The notes beneath the pieces were generated by a model. It saw only the letters and a program-made list of their open reading frames with translations, ran no database searches and was not told the origin of the DNA. The position numbers were made by a program, and so were the translations under genes. A stretch of 64,000 bases of DNA from a bacterium (GTDB lineage Bacteria; Patescibacteriota; Dojkabacteria; SC72), in the NCBI GenBank assembly GCA_021463465.1, contig JAJTYH010000003.1, forward strand, positions 351,942 to 415,941. Direction: 5' to 3'. This document shows, piece by piece, positions 2,244 to 54,898 of the stretch (the first letter of the stretch is position 1; each line of letters opens with the position of its first letter).

Positions 2244-3269
2244 ATGTCACCTAAAAATATTAATCAAGATAATGAGAAGGCTACCCCTAAAGAAGCTCGT
2301 AGTAAAGCTATTGAACTGGCGATCTCTCAGATTGAAAAACAGTTCGGCCAGGGTTCGATTATGAGATTGGGAAGTAGAGAAAAGATAAACATTGCAGCTA
2401 TACCCACTGGGGCATTGTCGCTTGATATTGCGCTTGGTATAGGAGGAATTCCAAGAGGAAGAATCATTGAGATTTATGGACCCGAATCTTCTGGTAAGAC
2501 TACTCTTGCTCAGCATATTTTAGCTGAAGCTCAAAAACTTGGTGAGAATGTAGCCTTTATCGATGCTGAGCATGCTTTTGATCCTACGTATGCTAAGTCA
2601 ATTGGTGTTGATATTGATAATCTTTTCATATCTCAGCCTGATTTTGGTGAACAAGCATTAGAAATTTTAGAGACATTGGTAAGATCAGCAGGTTTTGGTG
2701 TTATTGTTGTTGACTCAGTTGCTGCACTTACCCCAAGAGCTGAGATAGAAGGGGAAATGGGAGATAGTCATATGGGACTTCAAGCTCGTTTGATGTCGCA
2801 AGCTCTGCGTAAGGTTACTGCTATCGCCAGCAAGACTAATACTACAGTTATATTTCTTAACCAGTTGCGTATGAAGATTGGAATTATGTTTGGTAATCCA
2901 GAGACCACTACTGGTGGAAATGCGTTAAAGTTTTATGCTTCGGTTCGAATGGATATTCGTCAGAAAGAAAAAATTATGAAGGGAGATGAGGTGATTGGCC
3001 ATATTCGTGTCGTTAAGATTGTGAAGAATAAGGTTGCTCCTCCTTTTAGAGAAGCTTCTTTTAGTATCATTTATCCATTTGGAATTGATAAAGAAAGTAG
3101 TATCTTGGATGCCGCTCTCGCCAAAGGAATTCTTACCAAATCAGGGGCTTGGATTAGACATGGTGAAACACAGTTAGCACAAGGTCGTGAGTCTGCGATT
3201 GAGATGTTGAAAAATGACAAGGATTTAGCAAGAAAATTAGAAAAAGAAGTTAGAGCAACGATTAAGTAG
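2244..3269 (+). CDS. recA: recombinase RecA
   Basis: 341 aa. Walker [12 protein letters not shown], the block [25 protein letters not shown], and the L2 region [30 protein letters not shown] are all RecA hallmarks. Confidence 0.97.
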
Positions 3270-6614: not shown

Positions 6615-7103
6615 ATGACAATTACTGACAGTGGCATGCCTGGTCGTTCGGATTTACTGGGTATTAATAAAGTATTTTTGACTGAACTTATTGAGATGGA
6701 TGTTCGCAATGCCAATTTTAATATTGGAATAAAAGCGATAAACGAGCTTTCGTCATTGTTTTTCAATAAGGATGCCTCTGAATTAGAGTGTGAAATTGAT
6801 GAGGAAGAATCATGTTTACCAGGCTATTGTCTTATATCTATTCGTAGTGTTCCAAAAGGTAGTGATGGAATTACGTACTCAATCAGAGTTAATCAGGGTC
6901 AAGGGGTAAATGTGATAAAGTCGGCAGGGGATGTTTGTGAAACAGTTGTACTGGATTCCGAATCATTAAAAGTTTTGCTAAAAGGTGTGGCATCACAGAT
7001 GTACCAGCTAACCGATTTCAACTATTGGCATAGATTCAGTTATATTCTGGACAAGTTGGCAAAAATAGATTTAAATAGTGAGGGTAGTAATTCACCTATT
7101 TAA
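6615..7103 (+). CDS. hypothetical protein
   Basis: 162-aa ORF with no recognisable motif. Confidence 0.45.
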   Translation: MTITDSGMPGRSDLLGINKVFLTELIEMDVRNANFNIGIKAINELSSLFFNKDASELECEIDEEESCLPGYCLISIRSVPKGSDGITYSIRVNQGQGVNVIKSAGDVCETVVLDSESLKVLLKGVASQMYQLTDFNYWHRFSYILDKLAKIDLNSEGSNSPI

Positions 7104-7257
7104 TGATATGATACAGATAAGCGACCAAGGGTAGTGAAAGCTTGGAAAACATATGTGACTCAAACAATTGAAAACCAAGTGGTTGTACGAATGTACAGCA
7201 ACTGGGGTGGCACCGCGATAATAATCGTCCCCTTGTAAGTAGGGGATTTTTTATTTT
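7104..7257 (+). promoter_or_regulatory. T-box riboswitch leader of aspS (extended -10 promoter, stem I, T-box sequence, intrinsic terminator)
   Basis: An extended -10 TGaTATGAT lies at 7104-7112. The T-box sequence ACTGGGGTGGCACCGCG at 7201-7217 fits the consensus AnnnGGGUGGnACCGCG; its UGGC bulge would pair with the NCCA end of a tRNA whose discriminator is G, as in tRNA-Asp. The terminator is TCCCC-ttgtaagta-GGGGA plus a T-run at 7228-7257, only about 12 nt before the aspS start. A GAC (Asp) triplet sits in the upstream hairpin loop at 7157-7159. Confidence 0.75.
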
Positions 7258-7268
7258 AATTTATTTGT

Positions 7269-9161
7269 GTGAAAAACATGGAACGTATATATACAACACA
7301 GACGTTAGAGAAAGTTGGAGAAAACGTTAAGCTGGCTGGTTGGGCTGAAACTGTCCGAAACCACGGCAAAATTGTCTTTATTATGCTTCAAGATATTAAA
7401 AGTGTTATTCAATGTGTCGGTGGCGAAGAGTTGCAGGATGTTTCGGAAGGATATGTTATTGAGATTGAAGGTAAAGTTAAAGAACGTCCTGAAAAAATGG
7501 TAAATAAAGGGATTGAGACAGGTACAGTTGAGGTTGAAGTCACCTCGTGTAAAATTTTAGCCAAAAGCAAAGAATCACCAATTCCACTAAACACAACTGG
7601 TTATGAAATAAACGAGGAAATGCGTCTTAAGTATAGGTACCTCGACCTTAGAAGAAATAGGATGCGGAAGATTATTAAATTGCGCTCTGAATTCGCACAT
7701 GTTGTTAGGAATGAGTTTGTGAAGCATAATTTCATAGAAGTTGAAACTCCTATGTTAGCTAAAGCTACAAAAGAAGGTGCACGCGACTTTATTGTTCCAT
7801 CAAGATACAACCCTGGAAAGTTTTATGCCTTACCTCAAAGTCCACAACAGTATAAGCAGATTCTTATGACAGCTGGTGTTGAGAGATACTTCCAGTTAGC
7901 AAGATGTGTCAGAGATGAAGATCTCCGCTCAGACCGTGGTTATGAATTTACTCAGATCGACTTAGAGATGAGCTTTGTTAATCGAGAAATGGTAATGAAC
8001 ACAACAGAATCAATCATCAAAGCCGCAGTAAATGCTGTTGGAGGAAAGATAAAGGCAGATCCATTCCCTGTAATTGACTACAAGGATGCAATGAAGAAAT
8101 ATGGTGGTGATAAGTTTGACTTAAGGACTGACAAAGAGAAAGAAGAAGGGGTTCTAGCTTTTGCATGGGTAATAAATTTTCCATTTTTTAAGAAGGTAAA
8201 CAAGGAGGACAGTGCAGAGGTTGATGACGGCAAGAGTGGTTGGGTTTTCACGCATAATCCATTCAGTAGACCCACACCAGAATTTGAACAACAGCACTTG
8301 AAGGGCGAAAATCCTGGGGAAATTTTAACTACGCAGTACGACTTGGTTTGTAACGGATACGAAGTAGGTGGAGGTAGTATTAGAGCGCATGAACCAGAGA
8401 TGCTTCGTGCTACTTACGAGATTATGGGTTACAGTGAGCAAGAAATTGAAGATGGTATCGGTCATATGCTTAGAGCTTTCGAACTTGGTACACCACCTCA
8501 CGGAGGTATAGCTTTCGGATTGGACCGTTTGGTTATGTTATTGGCAAACGAAAGTTCGCTTAAAGAGGTAATAGCATTTCCAATGACTTCTAAAGGTTCA
8601 ACTGCAGTTATGGATGCTCCTTCCATTGTCCAGCAAAAAGATTTAGCTGCATTACATTTAGATGTCACTGACAAAGGTGACTGGGCGGTTAAAAGTATTA
8701 AAGCAAAGTTGGACAATTTGGAAATTAAGTATGACTATTTGGAGCATGCGGAAGTTAGAACTTCAGAAGAAGCTGCAAAGGTTAGAAATGTTCCTTTAGA
8801 ATACGGTGCAAAAGCTATGGTTTTAGCTTCAAAGGAGTATGAGAATAAGCTTGCAATGGTGGTTATACCTGGTGACAAACTATTGGATTTAGAGAAGGTT
8901 AAAAAGGCTTTGGGTGAAGAGTTTGATGTAGCGCCAAAAGAGTTAGTTGAAAAGCGAACTGGAATTAAAATGGGTGGAGTTCCACCATTCGGTAGACTGT
9001 TTGGGATTGAAGTTTACATGGATGGAAGCTTTTGGAGCAAAGAGAAATCAGCCTTCAATTGTGGAAGACGTGATGCTTCAATTATAATGAACGCTAATGA
9101 CCTTATTAAAGCCGTACAACCCAACAAGATTTCGGAAGGCTCAAGCTTCACCAAAGAATAA
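7269..9161 (+). CDS. aspS: aspartate--tRNA ligase (GAD-less, archaeal-like core) with C-terminal YbaK/ProX-type aminoacyl-tRNA deacylase domain
   Basis: Class II motif 2 is FQLARCVRDEDLRSDRGYEFTQIDLEMSF and motif 3 is GGGSIRAHEPEMLRA...PPHGGIAFGLDRLVMLL. Only about 160 aa separate them, so there is no GAD insertion. The C-terminal roughly 160 aa (about 8676-9161) carry KAMVLASKEYENKLAMVVIPGDKLLDLEKVKKALG...RTGIKMGGVPPFG, close to YbaK (KTLLVAVNGD...LAVAVTPV...LDLKKVAKALG...GYLVGGISPLG). The track start GTG 7269 has an alternative at ATG 7278. Confidence 0.92.
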   Translation: MKNMERIYTTQTLEKVGENVKLAGWAETVRNHGKIVFIMLQDIKSVIQCVGGEELQDVSEGYVIEIEGKVKERPEKMVNKGIETGTVEVEVTSCKILAKSKESPIPLNTTGYEINEEMRLKYRYLDLRRNRMRKIIKLRSEFAHVVRNEFVKHNFIEVETPMLAKATKEGARDFIVPSRYNPGKFYALPQSPQQYKQILMTAGVERYFQLARCVRDEDLRSDRGYEFTQIDLEMSFVNREMVMNTTESIIKAAVNAVGGKIKADPFPVIDYKDAMKKYGGDKFDLRTDKEKEEGVLAFAWVINFPFFKKVNKEDSAEVDDGKSGWVFTHNPFSRPTPEFEQQHLKGENPGEILTTQYDLVCNGYEVGGGSIRAHEPEMLRATYEIMGYSEQEIEDGIGHMLRAFELGTPPHGGIAFGLDRLVMLLANESSLKEVIAFPMTSKGSTAVMDAPSIVQQKDLAALHLDVTDKGDWAVKSIKAKLDNLEIKYDYLEHAEVRTSEEAAKVRNVPLEYGAKAMVLASKEYENKLAMVVIPGDKLLDLEKVKKALGEEFDVAPKELVEKRTGIKMGGVPPFGRLFGIEVYMDGSFWSKEKSAFNCGRRDASIIMNANDLIKAVQPNKISEGSSFTKE

Positions 9162-11447: not shown

Positions 11448-13004
11448 ATGCAACAAAGATTTAGGGCCGCACCAAGCCCTACAGGTAAGGTTCATATTGG
11501 TACTATTCGAGCATATTTACCTAACTTTTTGTTGGCCAAAAAGTATGGGGGAAAAAATATATTGAGAATTGAGGATACTGATCAGACTAGGCTAGTACCA
11601 AATGGAGTTGAAGCTATGATTGAAGCCTACGAAGAGGTGGGTATTTCCTTTGATGAAGGTCCCCACAAAGAGGGAGATTTTGGCCCGTATATACAATCTC
11701 AAAGACTCGATATTTATAAGAAATATGCTCAAGAGCTTTTGGATAATGATTATGCTTATTACTGTTTCTGTACTAAAGAACGCCTTGAAGAATTAAGGGA
11801 AACCCAAAAAGCAAATAAACAGAAACCAAGATACGATGGATTTTGTAGGAATATAGACAAGAGTGAGGCATTGAAACGGGTTAATGATGGGGAAGCACAT
11901 GTTATTCGAATGAAGTTTCCCCAGGAAGGTGGAACTGTTTGTCATGATCTTATATTTGGTAAAGTGAGCGTAAAAAATAGTGATGTAGAGGATCAGGTAT
12001 TAATGAAGGCCGATGGTTTTCCAACTTATCATCTAGCAGTTGTTGTAGACGATCATTTAATGGGAATAACCACTGCAATTCGAGGAGTAGATTGGCTCCC
12101 AAGTTTCCCTAAGCATGTAAAACTTTATGAATTCTTTGGATGGGAACTTCCCAAATTTGCACATTTGCCATTAATACTTAATCCAGACGGTAGAAAGAAA
12201 CTAAGTAAAAGGCATGGAGCTTTTCCAGTCAGTCAGATCTTGAGAAAAGGATATTTAAAAGAGGCTGTAATGAACTATGCCATGTTGTGTGGGTGGTCTC
12301 CAAAACCGGAGCTTGCGCATCAGGATGAGATTTACACTGTAGAAGAATTAATAAAACTGTTTGATTTGGATAGAGTTCATAAAACGGCTGCTCGATACGA
12401 TCAGGCTAAATTTGATTATATTAACTCTAAACATATTAGACGTCTTACCATTGATCAGTTTTCAGAAAGGATTATTGATTGGGCAAAGAGATATGTGATG
12501 CGAAGATTTATTAGCGATGAGTACACCGAAGCAGCGGAGTGGGAAGCAGAAGTAAAAAGTTTTGTAGAGAAGTATCTACCTTTATGGGAGAAAGACTTGG
12601 AGTATTTCAAGCGAGCTTTAGCACTCGAGCATGAAAGGATAACGGTTTTATCCGAGGTTCCTTCTGCTTTAGACTTTTTCTATGAGAAAGAATTAAGTTG
12701 GGAGGATAGTGATTGGAATACCAAGAATCATACTAAGTCAGAATTGGCTGATGCTTTAGAAAAGCTGCTTCCAAGATTAGAAGAAATTTTCAAAGGAAAT
12801 CAGTTTGACCATGAAGCATGGGAGAAAGTTGTCAGAGGATTAGCGGATGAATTAAACTGGAAACATGGAGATATGTTCATGGCGGTAAGGTCGGCTACAA
12901 CTGGTCGTTTACAGAGTCCTCCACTACTTGAAAGTTTTGAAATTATGGGTTGGGAGAAAGTAAAAGCTTTTGTAGAGCAAGCCATTGTTTGGTTGAGAAA
13001 ATAG
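11448..13004 (+). CDS. gltX: glutamate--tRNA ligase
   Basis: HIGH-type motif PSPTGKVHIGTIRAY and KMSKS-type motif KLSKRHG, with class I GluRS architecture. An extended -10 TGgTATAAT lies at 11404-11413. Confidence 0.92.
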   Translation: MQQRFRAAPSPTGKVHIGTIRAYLPNFLLAKKYGGKNILRIEDTDQTRLVPNGVEAMIEAYEEVGISFDEGPHKEGDFGPYIQSQRLDIYKKYAQELLDNDYAYYCFCTKERLEELRETQKANKQKPRYDGFCRNIDKSEALKRVNDGEAHVIRMKFPQEGGTVCHDLIFGKVSVKNSDVEDQVLMKADGFPTYHLAVVVDDHLMGITTAIRGVDWLPSFPKHVKLYEFFGWELPKFAHLPLILNPDGRKKLSKRHGAFPVSQILRKGYLKEAVMNYAMLCGWSPKPELAHQDEIYTVEELIKLFDLDRVHKTAARYDQAKFDYINSKHIRRLTIDQFSERIIDWAKRYVMRRFISDEYTEAAEWEAEVKSFVEKYLPLWEKDLEYFKRALALEHERITVLSEVPSALDFFYEKELSWEDSDWNTKNHTKSELADALEKLLPRLEEIFKGNQFDHEAWEKVVRGLADELNWKHGDMFMAVRSATTGRLQSPPLLESFEIMGWEKVKAFVEQAIVWLRK

Positions 13005-13033
13005 TTTGAAGATAATATAATTCTCGTTGCTAT

Positions 13034-13104
13034 TGCCAGGTCGTCTAATGGTAGGACTACGCTCTCTGGAAGCGTGTATCTTAGTTCGAATCTAAGCCTG
13101 GCAA
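13034..13104 (+). tRNA. tRNA-Gln (anticodon CUG)
   Basis: The cloverleaf was folded by hand. Acceptor is TGCCAGG/CCTGGCA (U1:A72, as is typical of bacterial tRNA-Gln). D arm is GTCT-AATGGTA-GGAC. Anticodon arm is ACGCT-CTCTGGA-AGCGT, giving anticodon CTG. T arm is CTTAG-TTCGAAT-CTAAG. Discriminator is A. Confidence 0.85.
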
Positions 13105-13126
13105 GATGTTTTAACGTTTAAAACAC

Positions 13127-21315: not shown

Positions 21316-22278
21316 ATGAACGAGCAAAGGTTACTTGAGGCCGCAGTTATTGCATCAGTTGTCCCATCGTACTGGACAGGTTGGTCGGTGGATGAGATTA
21401 GAAAGATAATTCATGGCGATATTGCACCAGATGGAGGGCATAGCGGTATTGAATATTTCCATGATGAAGGACATTTGGCTGCAAAGGGAATTTCAGGTTA
21501 TATGCCTATTGGAGGCTCAAGGATTTATCCAGAAGTTGCTGCAATTTTAAGATTGTACGCAGATCGAGAGATGCCTGAGTTAATTAGAGGAGCCGAATCT
21601 GTGGTTGAATTCGTTAAACGAAAGTTTATGAGGGACATGTCTATTGCCAGGTTCTCTCCTGCATTTAGTGGTCACAGCTACAACACACGAGACCCTTGGT
21701 TTGTTGATATTTATAACCTCTTGATGTGTAAGCCTGAGGTGGATACTGGTGAGAAATCCATTGTAACAGATTTTCTTGAAGGTTACTTTGCCTATATGAA
21801 GTTGCAAGGGGCTCATTATCCGTATAACTCAGAAATAAAAAATTATGCATTAGTACGCTGTCTAATGAATAGGTATGGTAGTAAAGTAAGGGTTTTGGGT
21901 AAAGATCGTTTAGATCGTCCAATTAAGGTAAGAATTGGGAATGGTAAAGCCTTTAATGTTGTTGAAAAAGATGTTAACTATCTTGAGACAGCTTTTTATG
22001 GGGCAGTTTTTTTAGCAGGGTATTTGGGAGGTGATAACTCCTCAGAGCTGGAGAATCTAACTGAGGAGAAACAAAGGTTTGCGTTTGAATTAGGTTTGAA
22101 GTTGACGGAGATGATGGCAGATAACTATAGAGGGAATGAGCGACAAAGGAGACCTGATATTTATGCTTTAGGAAAGTATATTCGAGAGCGTTTATCGAGG
22201 AGCTCTGGGTATGAAGTTGATTGGAATGGTATGAATAGATATGCCCGTATTCACATGAACTTGTTAGAGAACAAGTAA
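21316..22278 (+). CDS. hypothetical protein
   Basis: 320-aa ORF with good coding composition and no motif recognised. Confidence 0.5.
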   Translation: MNEQRLLEAAVIASVVPSYWTGWSVDEIRKIIHGDIAPDGGHSGIEYFHDEGHLAAKGISGYMPIGGSRIYPEVAAILRLYADREMPELIRGAESVVEFVKRKFMRDMSIARFSPAFSGHSYNTRDPWFVDIYNLLMCKPEVDTGEKSIVTDFLEGYFAYMKLQGAHYPYNSEIKNYALVRCLMNRYGSKVRVLGKDRLDRPIKVRIGNGKAFNVVEKDVNYLETAFYGAVFLAGYLGGDNSSELENLTEEKQRFAFELGLKLTEMMADNYRGNERQRRPDIYALGKYIRERLSRSSGYEVDWNGMNRYARIHMNLLENK

Positions 22279-22299
22279 CATTAGATTTAATTACATCGT

Positions 22300-22540
22300 A
22301 GTGGTGTGATATAATGTCTGGCAATACTTTGACCCAGCTATCACTGGTGAGTATCAGGAAGAAATCTAAAAGAGAGTAAAACCTGACGGAGAGCTTCCGA
22401 AACCACAAGCGAAAACCATACAAATGTGTGGTTAAGTGAAAAGTGAGGGTGGTACCGTGTACTACTTCAATGAATTTGAAATTACACCCCTCCATACTGT
22501 ATAGATTTAGTATCTATGCAATACGGAGGGGTTTTGTTTT
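22300..22540 (+). promoter_or_regulatory. T-box riboswitch leader of ileS (extended -10 promoter, T-box sequence, intrinsic terminator)
   Basis: An extended -10 TGaTATAAT lies at 22307-22315. The T-box sequence GTGAGGGTGGTACCGTG is at 22443-22459; its UGGU bulge would pair with an ACCA 3' end, as in tRNA-Ile (discriminator A). The terminator is CCCCTCC (22487-22493)...GGAGGGG (22525-22531) plus TTTTGTTTT (22532-22540). An ATC (Ile) triplet is present in the stem I region (GAGTATCAGG). Confidence 0.75.
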
Positions 22541-22558
22541 AACTTTACAATTACAAAT

Positions 22559-25438
22559 ATGTCCAAATTACAAAATGTAGATCCAAAGCATGATTTTGTA
22601 GCTATGGAAAATCGTCTACTTAAATGGTGGGAGGAGCAAGGGATACTGACTCAGTACATGGAAAAGAATCGAAAATCGAAAAAGAAGTTCGGTTTTATTG
22701 ATGGACCAATCACCGCTAATAATGAGATGGGACTTCACCACGCTTGGGGTAGAACCTACAAAGACTTAGTAAGTCGTTATAAAAACATGCAGGGCTTCGA
22801 GCAGCGTTTCCAGATGGGTTTTGACTGTCAGGGACTTTGGGTTGAGGTAGAAGTTGAGAAAGCACTTGGGTTTAACAGTAAGAAAGACATTTTCGATTAC
22901 GGTATGGATAAGTTTGTGAATGCTTGTAAAGACAGAGTATACAAATATTCAAAAATACAGACAGACCAATCAGTTAGATTGGGAATGTTCATGGATTGGG
23001 AGAACTCATACTACACAATGTCAGAGGAAAACAATCTTTACATCTGGAACTTCTTAAAGGTATGTCAACAAAAAGGATTGTTGTATAAGAGCCACTCATC
23101 GACCACTTGGTGTCCACGTTGTGAGACAGGTTTGTCTGAGCATGAAAAAGCTGATGGATACGCTGATATTGTTGATACTTCGGTCTACGTGAAATTCAAG
23201 GTAAAAGGTAAGGAGAATGAGTACCTTTTAGCTTGGACTACCACACCTTGGACTCTATCAGCAAATGTGTTGTTAGCTGTACATCCTGAACTTGAGTATG
23301 TCAAAGCCAAAGATGGAAATAGTACATACTATCTTGCGGCTAAACCTGCGGGAAAATTAGGTTTTAAAGATGTAGAGAGTGTAGATGTCAAAACCTTGGT
23401 TGGTATGAAATTTGAATCCCTTTATGATATCCCAGCACAGGAAGGCGTTGACCACTATGTAGTTGAGTGGGATTTAGTATCTGAGAATGATGGGTCAGGA
23501 ATTGTTCATATCGCACCAGGGTGTGGTCAGGAAGATTATGAGTTGGGTATGGAATTAAAAGTCCCTGCATTGTCACCGTTGGATGAAACTGGTCACTATA
23601 TGAATGGGTATGGTGATTTAACAGGTAAGTACGCCCATGACGTGAAAGATGAAGTCATATCCTATCTTAAGTCCGAAGGTTTATTGTTTAAGACCGAGGA
23701 TTACAAGCATACCTACCCTCACTGTTGGAGGTGCAAGACAAAGTGTTTGTTCCGGTTAGAAAACAATTGGTTTATTAATATTAGTAAGATAAGAGAAGAT
23801 TTAAAGAAAGCCGCTAATGAAGCTAAATGGACCCCAGAATTTGGAGGAAAACGAATGCAAGATTGGCTGAGGAATATGGGTGATTGGATGATAAGTAGAA
23901 AGCGTTTTTACGGCCTTGCCCTTCCATTTTATGAGTGTGAATGCGGTGAGGTTACAGTAGTTAGCGGTAAGGAAGAATTGAAGCAATTAGCAACAGATCC
24001 AGGAAAGGTTGATAAGTTGGAAAGCATACATCGACCTTGGATTGATGAGGTCACTATCAAATGCCCGAAGTGCAGCAAAGAAGTTAAGCGTGTTGCAGAT
24101 GTAGGTGACTGTTGGCTAGATGCCGGAGTGGTCCCATTTTCGACCTTAAAGTATCTTGAAGATAAGAAATATTGGAAGAAATGGTTCCCAGGCGATTTCA
24201 TAACTGAAATGGTTGAGCAGGTACGTTTATGGTTCTACTCAATGTTGGTTTTTGGTGTAGTTATGGAAGATAAGGTTCCTTATAGAGTGGTGGTAACCTA
24301 CGCTGAAATGAGGGATGAGAATAACAATAAAATGAGCAAGACAAAGAAGAACTATGTGCCGTTTAATGAAGCTGCGGACAAGGTTGGGGCAGATTTAATC
24401 CGTTGGAACTTCTGTCTTTCACCGTTTGGTAAGAATGTAAGATTTGGTTGGAATGTAGTTGAAGATGCTAGGCGTCAATTCTTATTGCCATTCTGGAACA
24501 GCTATTCATATTTTGTGACTTATGCAAATATGCACAGTTGGAAGTTTGATCCTAAATTTGATGCTAGCAAACTGACGAATATAATGGATCGATGGATTGT
24601 AGCCAGATTAGGTAAACTAGTAGAAGAAGTCACCAATGACATGGACCAATACAGTTTCTACGGTAGCGCAAATAAGATGCAAGCGTTTGTTGTGGACCTT
24701 TCCACTTGGTATATTCGACGTAGTCGAGATCGATTTAAAGTAGGCAATAAGGATGCCCTTAATACTCTCTATTTTGTTCTTGTAGAGCTTAACAAGATGC
24801 TTGCGCCTTTTGTTCCATTTGTGACCGAGGAGATGTATCAAAATCTAGTGGTCAATGGTGGAAATAAGGATGCTAAGATGTCTGTACATTTGGAAAGTTT
24901 TCCTGAGGTAAAGGAAGTTGATGAGAAGGTGCTTGAAGATATGGAGGTGGCAAGGGGAGTGGCATCACTTGGTCTTAAGGTTCGAGATGAGAAGCGATTA
25001 AAATTACGACAACCTTTGGCTAAAGCTTATGTTAATCTTAATTCAGAAGAGCTTAAAGAACTTGTAAGATTGGAGCTGAATGTGAAAGAAGTGGAGAGTA
25101 GCGAGAAAGCTCAGCAAGGAGAAGGAATGGTGATGATGGAAGGCAATGGATACTTTGTCACTCTGGATACTAATTTGACTGAAGAGCTAAAACAGGAGGG
25201 TTTGTACCGTGAATTGGTAAGGCAACTACAGGATTTGAGAAAACGTAATGGATTACAGGTAGGACAGCAGGTAGCAGCATTAATGTACAGTGAAAGTAAG
25301 GAAGTCGAGAATTTGGTAGGTAAATTTGATTCAGAATTAAGGCAGGATGTAAGCCTTTCTGATATAAAATTTGCCAAAAACGATGGTGAAAGTGTAAACT
25401 TTGACTCGTTTGATGTTAATGTTACTTTTGAAAAATAA
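22559..25438 (+). CDS. ileS: isoleucine--tRNA ligase
   Basis: HIGH-type motif MGLHHAWG and KMSKS motif NNKMSKTKKN. The CP1 editing domain and anticodon-binding region are present. 959 aa. Confidence 0.96.
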   Translation: MSKLQNVDPKHDFVAMENRLLKWWEEQGILTQYMEKNRKSKKKFGFIDGPITANNEMGLHHAWGRTYKDLVSRYKNMQGFEQRFQMGFDCQGLWVEVEVEKALGFNSKKDIFDYGMDKFVNACKDRVYKYSKIQTDQSVRLGMFMDWENSYYTMSEENNLYIWNFLKVCQQKGLLYKSHSSTTWCPRCETGLSEHEKADGYADIVDTSVYVKFKVKGKENEYLLAWTTTPWTLSANVLLAVHPELEYVKAKDGNSTYYLAAKPAGKLGFKDVESVDVKTLVGMKFESLYDIPAQEGVDHYVVEWDLVSENDGSGIVHIAPGCGQEDYELGMELKVPALSPLDETGHYMNGYGDLTGKYAHDVKDEVISYLKSEGLLFKTEDYKHTYPHCWRCKTKCLFRLENNWFINISKIREDLKKAANEAKWTPEFGGKRMQDWLRNMGDWMISRKRFYGLALPFYECECGEVTVVSGKEELKQLATDPGKVDKLESIHRPWIDEVTIKCPKCSKEVKRVADVGDCWLDAGVVPFSTLKYLEDKKYWKKWFPGDFITEMVEQVRLWFYSMLVFGVVMEDKVPYRVVVTYAEMRDENNNKMSKTKKNYVPFNEAADKVGADLIRWNFCLSPFGKNVRFGWNVVEDARRQFLLPFWNSYSYFVTYANMHSWKFDPKFDASKLTNIMDRWIVARLGKLVEEVTNDMDQYSFYGSANKMQAFVVDLSTWYIRRSRDRFKVGNKDALNTLYFVLVELNKMLAPFVPFVTEEMYQNLVVNGGNKDAKMSVHLESFPEVKEVDEKVLEDMEVARGVASLGLKVRDEKRLKLRQPLAKAYVNLNSEELKELVRLELNVKEVESSEKAQQGEGMVMMEGNGYFVTLDTNLTEELKQEGLYRELVRQLQDLRKRNGLQVGQQVAALMYSESKEVENLVGKFDSELRQDVSLSDIKFAKNDGESVNFDSFDVNVTFEK

Positions 25439-54675: not shown

Positions 54676-54731
54676 TTTTTTATTTGGTTATGTATTGGAA
54701 TTATTGTATCTCAATAAGAGGAAATTGACTC

Positions 54732-54803
54732 CTCCGCGACCAGGATTCGAACCTGGAACCAACCGGTTAACAGCCGGTCGCTCTACCGTTGAGCTATCGC
54801 GGA
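54732..54803 (-). tRNA. tRNA-Asn (anticodon GUU)
   Basis: The reverse complement folds by hand. Acceptor TCCGCGA/TCGCGGA. D arm GCTC-AACGGTA-GAGC. Anticodon arm ACCGG-CTGTTAA-CCGGT, giving GTT. T arm CCAGG-TTCGAAT-CCTGG. Discriminator G. Confidence 0.88.
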
Positions 54804-54898
54804 ATATCAGCAATCATTATACTTATCGCCTCCCATTTACGCAATATTTACATATCTGGTAATATATATGTAGATTCTAATTTCAAATCAATATTCAA

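Follow-up and report, generated by a model that had tools for sequence, protein, structure and literature searches.

T-boxes are the textbook case of a whole tRNA being recognised by an RNA, and their long Stem I is thought to serve as a molecular ruler between the anticodon and the elbow of the tRNA. Whether a T-box can be built without this ruler is the question raised by the leader of aspS, the gene for aspartyl-tRNA synthetase (AspRS), in a 64-kb stretch of Dojkabacteria DNA (positions 351,942 to 415,941 of contig JAJTYH010000003.1, assembly GCA_021463465.1), which is referred to here as the window. An earlier note on this DNA had proposed that a T-box leader controls aspS by termination and antitermination. 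The proposal holds up well: an antiterminator and a terminator overlap in front of the gene, and the T-box model of Rfam, RF00230, aligns with the discriminator domain. The leader is probably an Asp-specific T-box riboswitch which attenuates transcription, in a reduced form that would begin at the module docking with the tRNA elbow.

To place the leader among its relatives, DNA was taken around 12 aspS orthologues whose proteins are 58-74% identical to the AspRS of the window. A recognisable version of the leader is present at all 12 loci, and these together with the window's own are the 13 leaders discussed below. The coordinates of the features are collected in Table 1.

The earlier note had staked its proposal on a search with RF00230, and the outcome is divided. 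At the gathering score of 93 bits no match was obtained anywhere in the window, nor was a T-box found at this threshold upstream of aspS in nine loci of the Candidate Phyla Radiation (CPR). In E-value mode, with 401 nucleotides (nt) searched, positions 7061-7235 gave a significant match (45.7 bits, E = 4.5e-9), which nevertheless lies below the gathering score. Posterior probability is high for the alignment of Stem III and the antiterminator but low for that of the Stem I half, which contains many non-canonical pairs, and nothing is aligned to Stem II or Stem IIA/B. The score is as low as this because the Stem I region misfits the model, and this was a hint that the 5' domain is out of the ordinary.

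Table 1. Features of the aspS leader and gene; positions are those of the window
Feature	Positions	Strand	Remarks
Extended -10 element TGaTATGAT (TGATATGAT)	7104-7112	+	Position conserved in relatives
AGCGA, the AG-bulge motif; candidate first T-loop of an interdigitated double T-loop (IDTM)	7120-7124	+	AGCGA in 12 of 13 leaders
Helix P1 (7125-7129/7141-7145) and 11-nt distal loop GGUAGUGAAAG (7130-7140)	7125-7145	+	Putative tRNA-elbow docking module
A-rich linker from P1 to the specifier	7146-7156	+	11 nt (8-12 nt in relatives); no partner strand; no RNAalifold helix
Specifier GAC (Asp) within invariant GUGAY	7157-7159	+	Sole Asp codon conserved in position
Conserved single-stranded block (U/A)ACAAYUAAAUA…ACC	7160-7176	+	Between specifier and AAGUG; equivalents in L081-L214
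AAGUG, an RRRNG motif (7177-7181); Stem III (7182-7188/7193-7199); AA (7200-7201)	7177-7201	+	Stem III covariation in 7/7 pairs
T-box sequence and antiterminator	7202-7232	+	RF00230 alignment at high posterior probability; A1/A2 pairing
Intrinsic terminator	7227-7258	+	Stem 7227-7233/7241-7247, loop 7234-7240, then U-run
aspS	7278-9161	+	Pfam PF01336, PF00152, PF04073

A standard discriminator domain upstream of aspS

The 17-mer ACTGGGGTGGCACCGCG occupies positions 7201-7217, exactly where the T-box motif had been placed by the earlier note. Its core, GGGTGGCACCGCG at 7205-7217, stands far above chance, 0.05 matches being expected. Shuffled sequence gave a mean of 0.05 core matches, and two matches were seen in none of 100 shuffles. 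Searched as GGGTGGNACCRCG, the core has a single exact match in the 64 kb, that at 7205-7217, and one more with 1 mismatch, at 22447.

The core forms part of an antiterminator at 7204-7232, in which helix A1 (7204-7207/7229-7232) and helix A2 (7215-7219/7224-7228) are separated by a bulge of 7 nt, UGGCACC (7208-7214). A UGGNACC bulge between two antiterminator helices is a hallmark of membership of RF00230. The first four positions of the bulge (7208-7211) read UGGC in 11 of the 13 leaders and UGGU in the remaining 2. The discriminator of tRNA-Asp is G73. The UGGC of the window fits this base, as the earlier note had stated, and UGGU could be compatible with it too, by G-U pairing. With G73 taken from general knowledge, the specifier codon is thus matched to the regulated gene and the UGGN sequence to the tRNA discriminator, as they are in other T-boxes.

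A terminator scan returned the hairpin at 7227-7247 followed by TTTTTTATTTT, and a terminator was found in 13 of 13 leaders. Positions 7227-7232 are common to the 5' half of the terminator and the 3' strand of the antiterminator; a mutually exclusive terminator which overlaps the 3' half of the antiterminator in this way is a further defining trait of T-boxes. With a computed energy of -10.8 kcal/mol for the terminator against -9.3 kcal/mol for the antiterminator, termination would be the stable default, as in known T-boxes. The earlier note had the terminator ending 12 nt before the gene. The terminator itself is present but the gap is wider: with aspS starting at ATG 7278 (MERIY..., as in all homologues) instead of GTG 7269, about 20 nt separate the end of the U-run from the start codon. 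On the 5' side of the antiterminator, Stem III is flanked by 5'-RRRNG and AA-3', which is again typical of T-boxes, the RRRNG motif flanking Stem III having been described previously (PMC7778990).

A 5' module resembling the elbow-docking platform

The extended -10 element follows directly on the stop codon (7101-7103) of the upstream open reading frame (ORF), 6615-7103. The earlier note had read the promoter as TGaTATGAT, and the comparison with relatives bears it out. In all 12 leaders tested, a hexamer that matches a -10 box in at least 5 of its 6 positions has its end 7-14 nt 5' of AGCGA, against a background of 6.4%, and the TGn extension is present in 9 of these 12, against 2.5% in the same loci. 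The distance from promoter to AGCGA is 7 nt in the window; in L214, which carries AGCAA in place of AGCGA, TATAAT lies 8 nt upstream of this counterpart. Transcription would, to judge from these positions, start at about 7117-7120.

AGCGA leads into P1, a helix of 5 base pairs (bp) that is closed by a distal loop of the pattern G-R-N-R-GUG-W-R-A-G. The same loop pattern is seen in L169 (GGCGGUGUAAG) and L098 (GAGGGUGUAAG), two canonical T-boxes of the glyQS type. Written out in full, the module of the window is AGCGA-CCAAG-GGUAGUGAAAG-CUUGG, that of L169 is AGCGA-GCCGC-GGCGGUGUAAG-GCGGC and that of L098 is AGCGA-UUCCGG-GAGGGUGUAAG-CCGGAU, whilst the Rfam consensus for distal Stem I is AGAGA-gcuggc-GgUUGGUGaaA-gccagc. 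Furthermore, when L169, L098 and a canonical Asp T-box, L071, are searched with R2, a covariance model built from Dojkabacteria leaders only, positions 1-28 of the model fall with high posterior probability on the AG bulge, distal helix and distal loop; the remainder of R2 aligns onto Stem III and the antiterminator of the same three. At the level of alignment, the 5' module of the aspS leader (7120-7145) is the distal platform of Stem I, in which the AG bulge, together with the distal loop, would adopt the IDTM fold.

The other parts of a long Stem I appear to be absent. The earlier note had suggested folding Stem I to identify its specifier loop. A canonical Stem I was not borne out: the leader appears to start at the AG-bulge/distal-loop module, and it has no recognisable proximal helix, K-turn/GA motif or specifier internal loop with an S-turn. 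Among the relatives, too, the leaders showed no 5' strand, no K-turn, no specifier internal loop and no Stem II.

A hairpin is also present further upstream, at 7073-7101 (+), at the end of ORF 6615-7103. Its strands AAAUAGUGA and UCACCUAUUU enclose the loop GGGUAGUAAU, which is similar to the distal loop, GGGUAGUGAAAG, that lies 50 nt further downstream. The hairpin is not conserved in the relatives, whose upstream sequences are unrelated, and it is probably a coincidence or the remnant of a local duplication.

The specifier codon and its surroundings

The specifier is GAC in 9 of the 13 leaders and GAU in the other 4, with AAY in none, so that its variation is synonymous only. The GAC of the window has a predicted unpaired probability of 0.99-1.00, and in 9 of the 13 leaders the codon is followed by A, like the conserved purine of canonical specifier loops. 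The earlier note had pointed to a GAC triplet in a Stem I loop; the triplet can be retained as the Asp specifier, but it lies in an apparently unpaired stretch and not in a canonical loop. Its codon starts 8-12 nt 3' of P1 across the leaders, and these nt are unpaired, whereas the corresponding distance in the canonical comparators L169, L071 and L098 is 13-18 nt and is base-paired. An extended single strand of 8-12 nt may span about as far as a helix of 13-18 nt, and simultaneous contact with the elbow and the anticodon would therefore still be possible.

Between the codon and AAGUG lie 17-30 nt which are mostly unpaired and which include the conserved block listed in Table 1. Within this block ACAA (7164-7167) is nearly invariant among the leaders. 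No covarying helix, partner or known T-box counterpart was found for positions 7160-7176; RNAalifold pairs the ACC of the block with part of the GGG run in the T-box, a pairing that several sequences break.

Two other triplets were considered as the specifier and rejected. The GAC within AGCGAC (7123-7125) is part of the AG-bulge/P1 module, which Gly-specific T-boxes have as well. A Val specifier would be obtained by reading GUGAY in the GUG frame. Within this motif only the Y varies, and either base there gives an Asp codon; in addition, UGGC misfits A73, the discriminator of tRNA-Val.

Conservation and covariation among relatives

The nearest AspRS proteins carry the names Candidatus Dojkabacteria, candidate division WS6 or Patescibacteria. 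The leaders have a common order of elements: the -10 box, AGCGA, P1 with its 11-nt loop, AAA and a few nt, GUGAY, the A/U-rich block, AAGUG, Stem III (very variable in sequence), AA, the T-box with UGGC or UGGU, and the terminator. Two covariance models constructed from Dojkabacteria leaders, R1 and R2, match 13 of 13 leaders with 46-152 bits. R1 has a single match in the window; the sole further match of R2 in the window is the leader of ileS (13.7 bits, E = 1.2), which is described below.

Evidence for the helices comes from an alignment of the 13 sequences. In this alignment, which was fitted to a covariance model and so favours the structure, 98.1% of pair cells hold standard pairs, a figure that drops to 31-48% once the 3' partners have been shifted by 1-3 columns. 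Two-sided, compensatory changes are found in 13 of 21 pairs (P1 4/5, Stem III 7/7, A1 1/4, A2 1/5), and the covariation values were reached by no shuffle. P1, A1 and A2 are paired in 100% of cells, the latter two with both one- and two-sided changes. An independent run of RNAalifold predicted P1, Stem III and A2 along with the terminator. Covariation thus supports every helix predicted for the leader. The minimum free energy fold of the single sequence, in which CUUGG pairs with a downstream CCAAG and the 5' end with the T-box, was discarded, as compensatory changes in L087, L210 and L214 favour P1 and disrupt this other pairing.

Further members were sought in two ways. A genome scan with the AspRS alignment, for which the patterns were too general, returned only four Dojkabacteria-like loci, with the leader in none of them. 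The metagenome pattern AGCGA-N67-97-GGGTGGNACC gave no new member among the matches listed, which consisted of random GC-rich sequences and the canonical T-boxes L098, L126, L169 and L183.

A model for tRNA-Asp sensing

The following mechanism can be proposed from these elements. The extended -10 promoter would start the RNA at AGCGA (7120) or a few nt from it, so that the transcript would open with the AG bulge, P1 and the distal loop, which in canonical T-boxes make up a double T-loop platform stacking against the elbow of the tRNA. The 5' strand of proximal Stem I would be missing and with it the K-turn and the specifier internal loop with its S-turn, and there would be no Stem II or IIA/B. 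GAC, lying in an unpaired A-rich stretch 11 nt 3' of P1, would pair with the anticodon GUC of tRNA-Asp. Downstream, AAGUG, Stem III, AA and the antiterminator would act as a standard discriminator domain. When tRNA-Asp is uncharged, its 3'-GCCA would pair with UGGC, the antiterminator would be stabilised and polymerase would read into aspS; when the tRNA is charged, the more stable terminator would form instead. A more specific proposal is that the T-box is 'unzipped', with the 5'-terminal IDTM hairpin tied to the codon by a flexible strand of 8-12 nt alone. For this we see the chances as evenly balanced.

A number of points weigh against the leader being a tRNA-sensing T-box of this kind. Its RF00230 score is half of that required for gathering. 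In 4 of the 13 leaders, that of the window among them, U takes the place of the usual purine after the codon. No tRNA-Asp gene, from which the anticodon and the discriminator could be read, was found in the window or the 55 loci scanned. The start site is placed by promoter-like boxes only, and no terminator lies between the end of the upstream ORF (7103) and the leader, so that read-through is possible. No such leader was found at L001, L003 and L004, three other Dojkabacteria-like loci; the element is therefore specific to one clade, and it is one clade only that the sampling covers. Finally, a long Stem I is described as a general need of T-boxes that act on transcription (PMC7583486), and the function of a tethered IDTM is accordingly putative.

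Weighing the alternatives

The reduced 5' end can be explained in other ways. A canonical T-box with a long Stem I could start further upstream, inside ORF 6615-7103, its 5' strand, K-turn and specifier loop having diverged too far to be recognised. Such a start would suit the RF00230 alignment, which begins at 7061 and pairs AUAG with CUAU around the hairpin at 7073-7101, and it would suit the lack of a terminator between the upstream ORF and the leader. In that stretch of the Rfam alignment the posterior probability is low, however, and the sequences upstream of the 13 leaders are mutually unrelated apart from the -10 box at its fixed distance. Furthermore, in none of the 12 leaders tested do the upstream 60 nt form a better duplex with the stretch from P1 to the codon than shuffled upstream sequence does, and several relatives have a long intergenic spacer of different content upstream. 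A hidden long Stem I is thus very unlikely. Another possibility keeps the IDTM hairpin as a separate unit but places the specifier in the terminal loop of a small hairpin of its own, an ultrashort Stem I, so that Stem I would be permuted into two hairpins. For 8 of 12 leaders it is possible to draw an AU-rich stem of 3-5 bp around a loop of 6-10 nt which has GAY at its 3' end, examples being GUAA[UGUGAC]UUAC in L210 and UGUAU[UGGUGAU]AUACA in L081, and in the window's ileS leader the specifier is placed in a terminal loop. Yet stems of this size are close to what chance provides: the observed mean is 3.0 bp compared with 2.8 bp for swapped flanks (permutation p = 0.23). The window gives 1 bp only in that register, and no consistent helix emerges from RNAalifold or the partition function. 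We regard the two-hairpin arrangement as unlikely.

It may also be asked whether the leader still senses tRNA at all. Most of Stem I is gone and the RF00230 match is sub-threshold, as might be the case for a decayed T-box whose terminator has become an attenuator that is constitutive or regulated in some other way. Against such decay, AGCGA and the distal loop, GUGAY, AAGUG, UGGN and all of the helices are kept, with compensatory changes, down to an AspRS identity of 58%. This conservation of the elements that contact tRNA implies purifying selection on exactly those elements, and makes a relic highly improbable. An Asp-specific T-box in reduced form is the reading that we prefer, and the comparisons which follow are made on this basis.

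The question of tRNA-Asn

The earlier note had suggested that tRNA-Asn charging might be sensed along with that of tRNA-Asp, if the organism lacks AsnRS and its GAD-less AspRS is non-discriminating. The absence of GAD is confirmed, in that the class II core domain of this bacterial-type AspRS is matched without an insertion. Some observations would permit the suggestion. The gene for tRNA-Asn(GUU) in the window (54731-54804, - strand; no encoded CCA) specifies a discriminator G, which is able to pair with UGGC. It also specifies U1-A72, a pair which promotes amidation by GatCAB (PMC1635274) and which is compatible with an indirect Asn pathway, without being proof of it. GAC could form two Watson-Crick pairs and one G-U pair with the anticodon GUU. 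Neither asnS nor gatCAB is among the 17 ORFs of the window scanned with Pfam, although 64 kb cannot settle their presence genome-wide. This evidence is permissive only. The specifier is always an Asp codon, GAC or GAU and never AAY, and the GAU of 4 leaders would need two wobble pairs with GUU. Sensing of both tRNAs is thus most improbable, and this part of the earlier note is not upheld. In Clostridium acetobutylicum a T-box likewise precedes aspS, reportedly an Asn-specific one over an operon of non-discriminating AspRS and gatCAB; it is said to carry an Asn codon, in contrast to the Asp codons which alone are found here.

An indirect pathway may also exist for Gln. A GluRS-type gene (11448-13105, +; PF00749 and PF19269) is followed after 29 nt by a gene for tRNA-Gln(CUG) with U1-A72, a pairing suggestive of a non-discriminating GluRS and indirect formation of Gln-tRNA. 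Only 43 nt lie upstream of the GluRS-type gene, which leaves no room for a leader.

Comparison with known tRNA-recognising RNAs

Parallels can be drawn between the aspS leader and T-boxes of class I. Those of the glyQS type (L169 and L098; 70-71 bits with RF00230; without Stem II) have, like the aspS leader, an AG bulge (AGCGA/AGAGA), a helix of 5-6 bp and an 11-nt loop. L071, the Asp T-box of a Bacilli metagenome-assembled genome (113 bits; specifier GAA-GAC-A), is a comparator of the same class whose codon, as in the aspS leader, is matched to the aminoacyl-tRNA synthetase. All of these share with the aspS leader the RRRNG motif, Stem III, AA, a 7-nt UGGNACC bulge and a terminator which overlaps the antiterminator and is followed by a U-run. 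The aspS leader differs from them in being without some 40 nt of 5' strand, comprising the K-turn, the AGUA half of the S-turn and the 'ruler' helices, and it has the promoter there instead. Its codon is preceded by RGU or UGU, those of the comparators by GAA.

Class II T-boxes, represented by the ileS leaders of Actinobacteria such as Mycobacterium, have an ultrashort Stem I and no IDTM, need Stem II and the IIA/B pseudoknot, and are mostly translational (PMC7583486). They resemble the aspS leader in the drastic natural reduction of Stem I and in being missed or poorly scored by RF00230. It is, however, the opposite part that has been lost. The aspS leader keeps an IDTM-like module, has neither Stem II with an S-turn nor a IIA/B pseudoknot, and ends in a terminator, whilst a specifier hairpin like that of class II is at chance level in it.

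A long Stem I that bears an IDTM has been described as generally required in transcriptional T-boxes (PMC7583486, PMC11404447). The aspS leader, in which a discriminator domain, an IDTM-like module and a specifier can all be recognised by sequence, would thus be a new structural variant of the T-box, class I-like in its action. Full-text searches, whose coverage excludes most subscription journals, returned no literature linking T-boxes with CPR or Patescibacteria. Beyond riboswitches, interdigitated T-loop platforms recognise the tRNA elbow in RNase P and in the ribosomal L1 stalk. There, too, the platform is a self-contained elbow-docking module without a helical ruler, but the anticodon and the 3' end are not read as they are by a riboswitch.

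The aspS product

The AspRS encoded downstream carries at its C-terminus (residues 490-611) an aminoacyl-tRNA editing domain of the YbaK/ProX type (PF04073, E = 9.5e-25), to which the closest structures are 3op6 and YbaK 1dbu. The PF01336/PF00152/PF04073 architecture recurs in all 120 AspRS homologues among the matches listed. One search of the literature brought up no account of an AspRS fused to YbaK.

A second T-box-like leader upstream of ileS and others in CPR genomes

A second cryptic T-box-like leader is located at 22307-22545 (+), within a 280-nt spacer before ileS (22559-25438, ATG 22559; Pfam IleRS). An extended -10 element, TGATATAAT, lies at 22307-22315, and the T-box GGGTGGTACCGTG lies at 22447-22459 with UGGU, as expected for tRNA-Ile A73. 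RF00230 matches 22320-22494 with 26.8 bits (E = 2.6e-4, 301 nt searched). The leader has a short Stem I, with a K-turn-like UUUGA/UGA, a helix CCAG/CUGG and a terminal loop CUAUCA, and the specifier is AUC (22340-22342) plus A (22340-22343). Elements like Stem II and IIA/B follow, together with an antiterminator and a terminator-like CCCCUCC…GGAGGGG (22487-22531) with a U-run, and the fold of the region far surpasses that of shuffled sequence (z = -5.3). This leader resembles class II, as a cryptic T-box with an ultrashort Stem I and no elbow platform, but it ends in a terminator. ORF 21974-22495 (-), which overlaps it, is probably spurious. The genome therefore appears to contain two complementary reductions of Stem I, the aspS leader keeping the IDTM only and the ileS leader keeping the K-turn, the specifier hairpin and Stem II.

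T-box-like leaders with other non-canonical 5' domains were seen in further CPR genomes. Those of L002 (2735-2853), L021 (about 2750-3000) and L029 (776-874) lie directly upstream of aspS. L002 has GGAGGUGGCACCGC and a terminator, and possibly a GAU in a terminal loop, with no RF00230 match at E <= 1; L021 has a terminator with UGGCAC in its loop; and L029 is matched on the antiterminator only. That of L009 (670-875), about 2.1 kb upstream of aspS, has the look of the ultrashort-Stem-I/Stem II type and scores 38 bits.

Implications

A conserved T-box which possesses an elbow platform and a codon but no helix between them would directly test the view of Stem I as a ruler, and would define a minimal transcriptional tRNA sensor of roughly 115 nt. 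If the 'unzipped' form works, the rigid Stem I ruler, the K-turn and the S-turn would be dispensable for a co-transcriptional T-box. Taken together, and if their interpretation is true, the aspS and ileS leaders would mean that Stem I has separable tRNA-contacting modules which can be lost independently in reduced CPR genomes, and the two leaders would offer minimal natural scaffolds for engineering. With scores so far under the Rfam threshold, T-boxes of Patescibacteria/CPR such as these will probably escape standard annotation, and the extent of tRNA-based regulation may be undercounted in these genomes.

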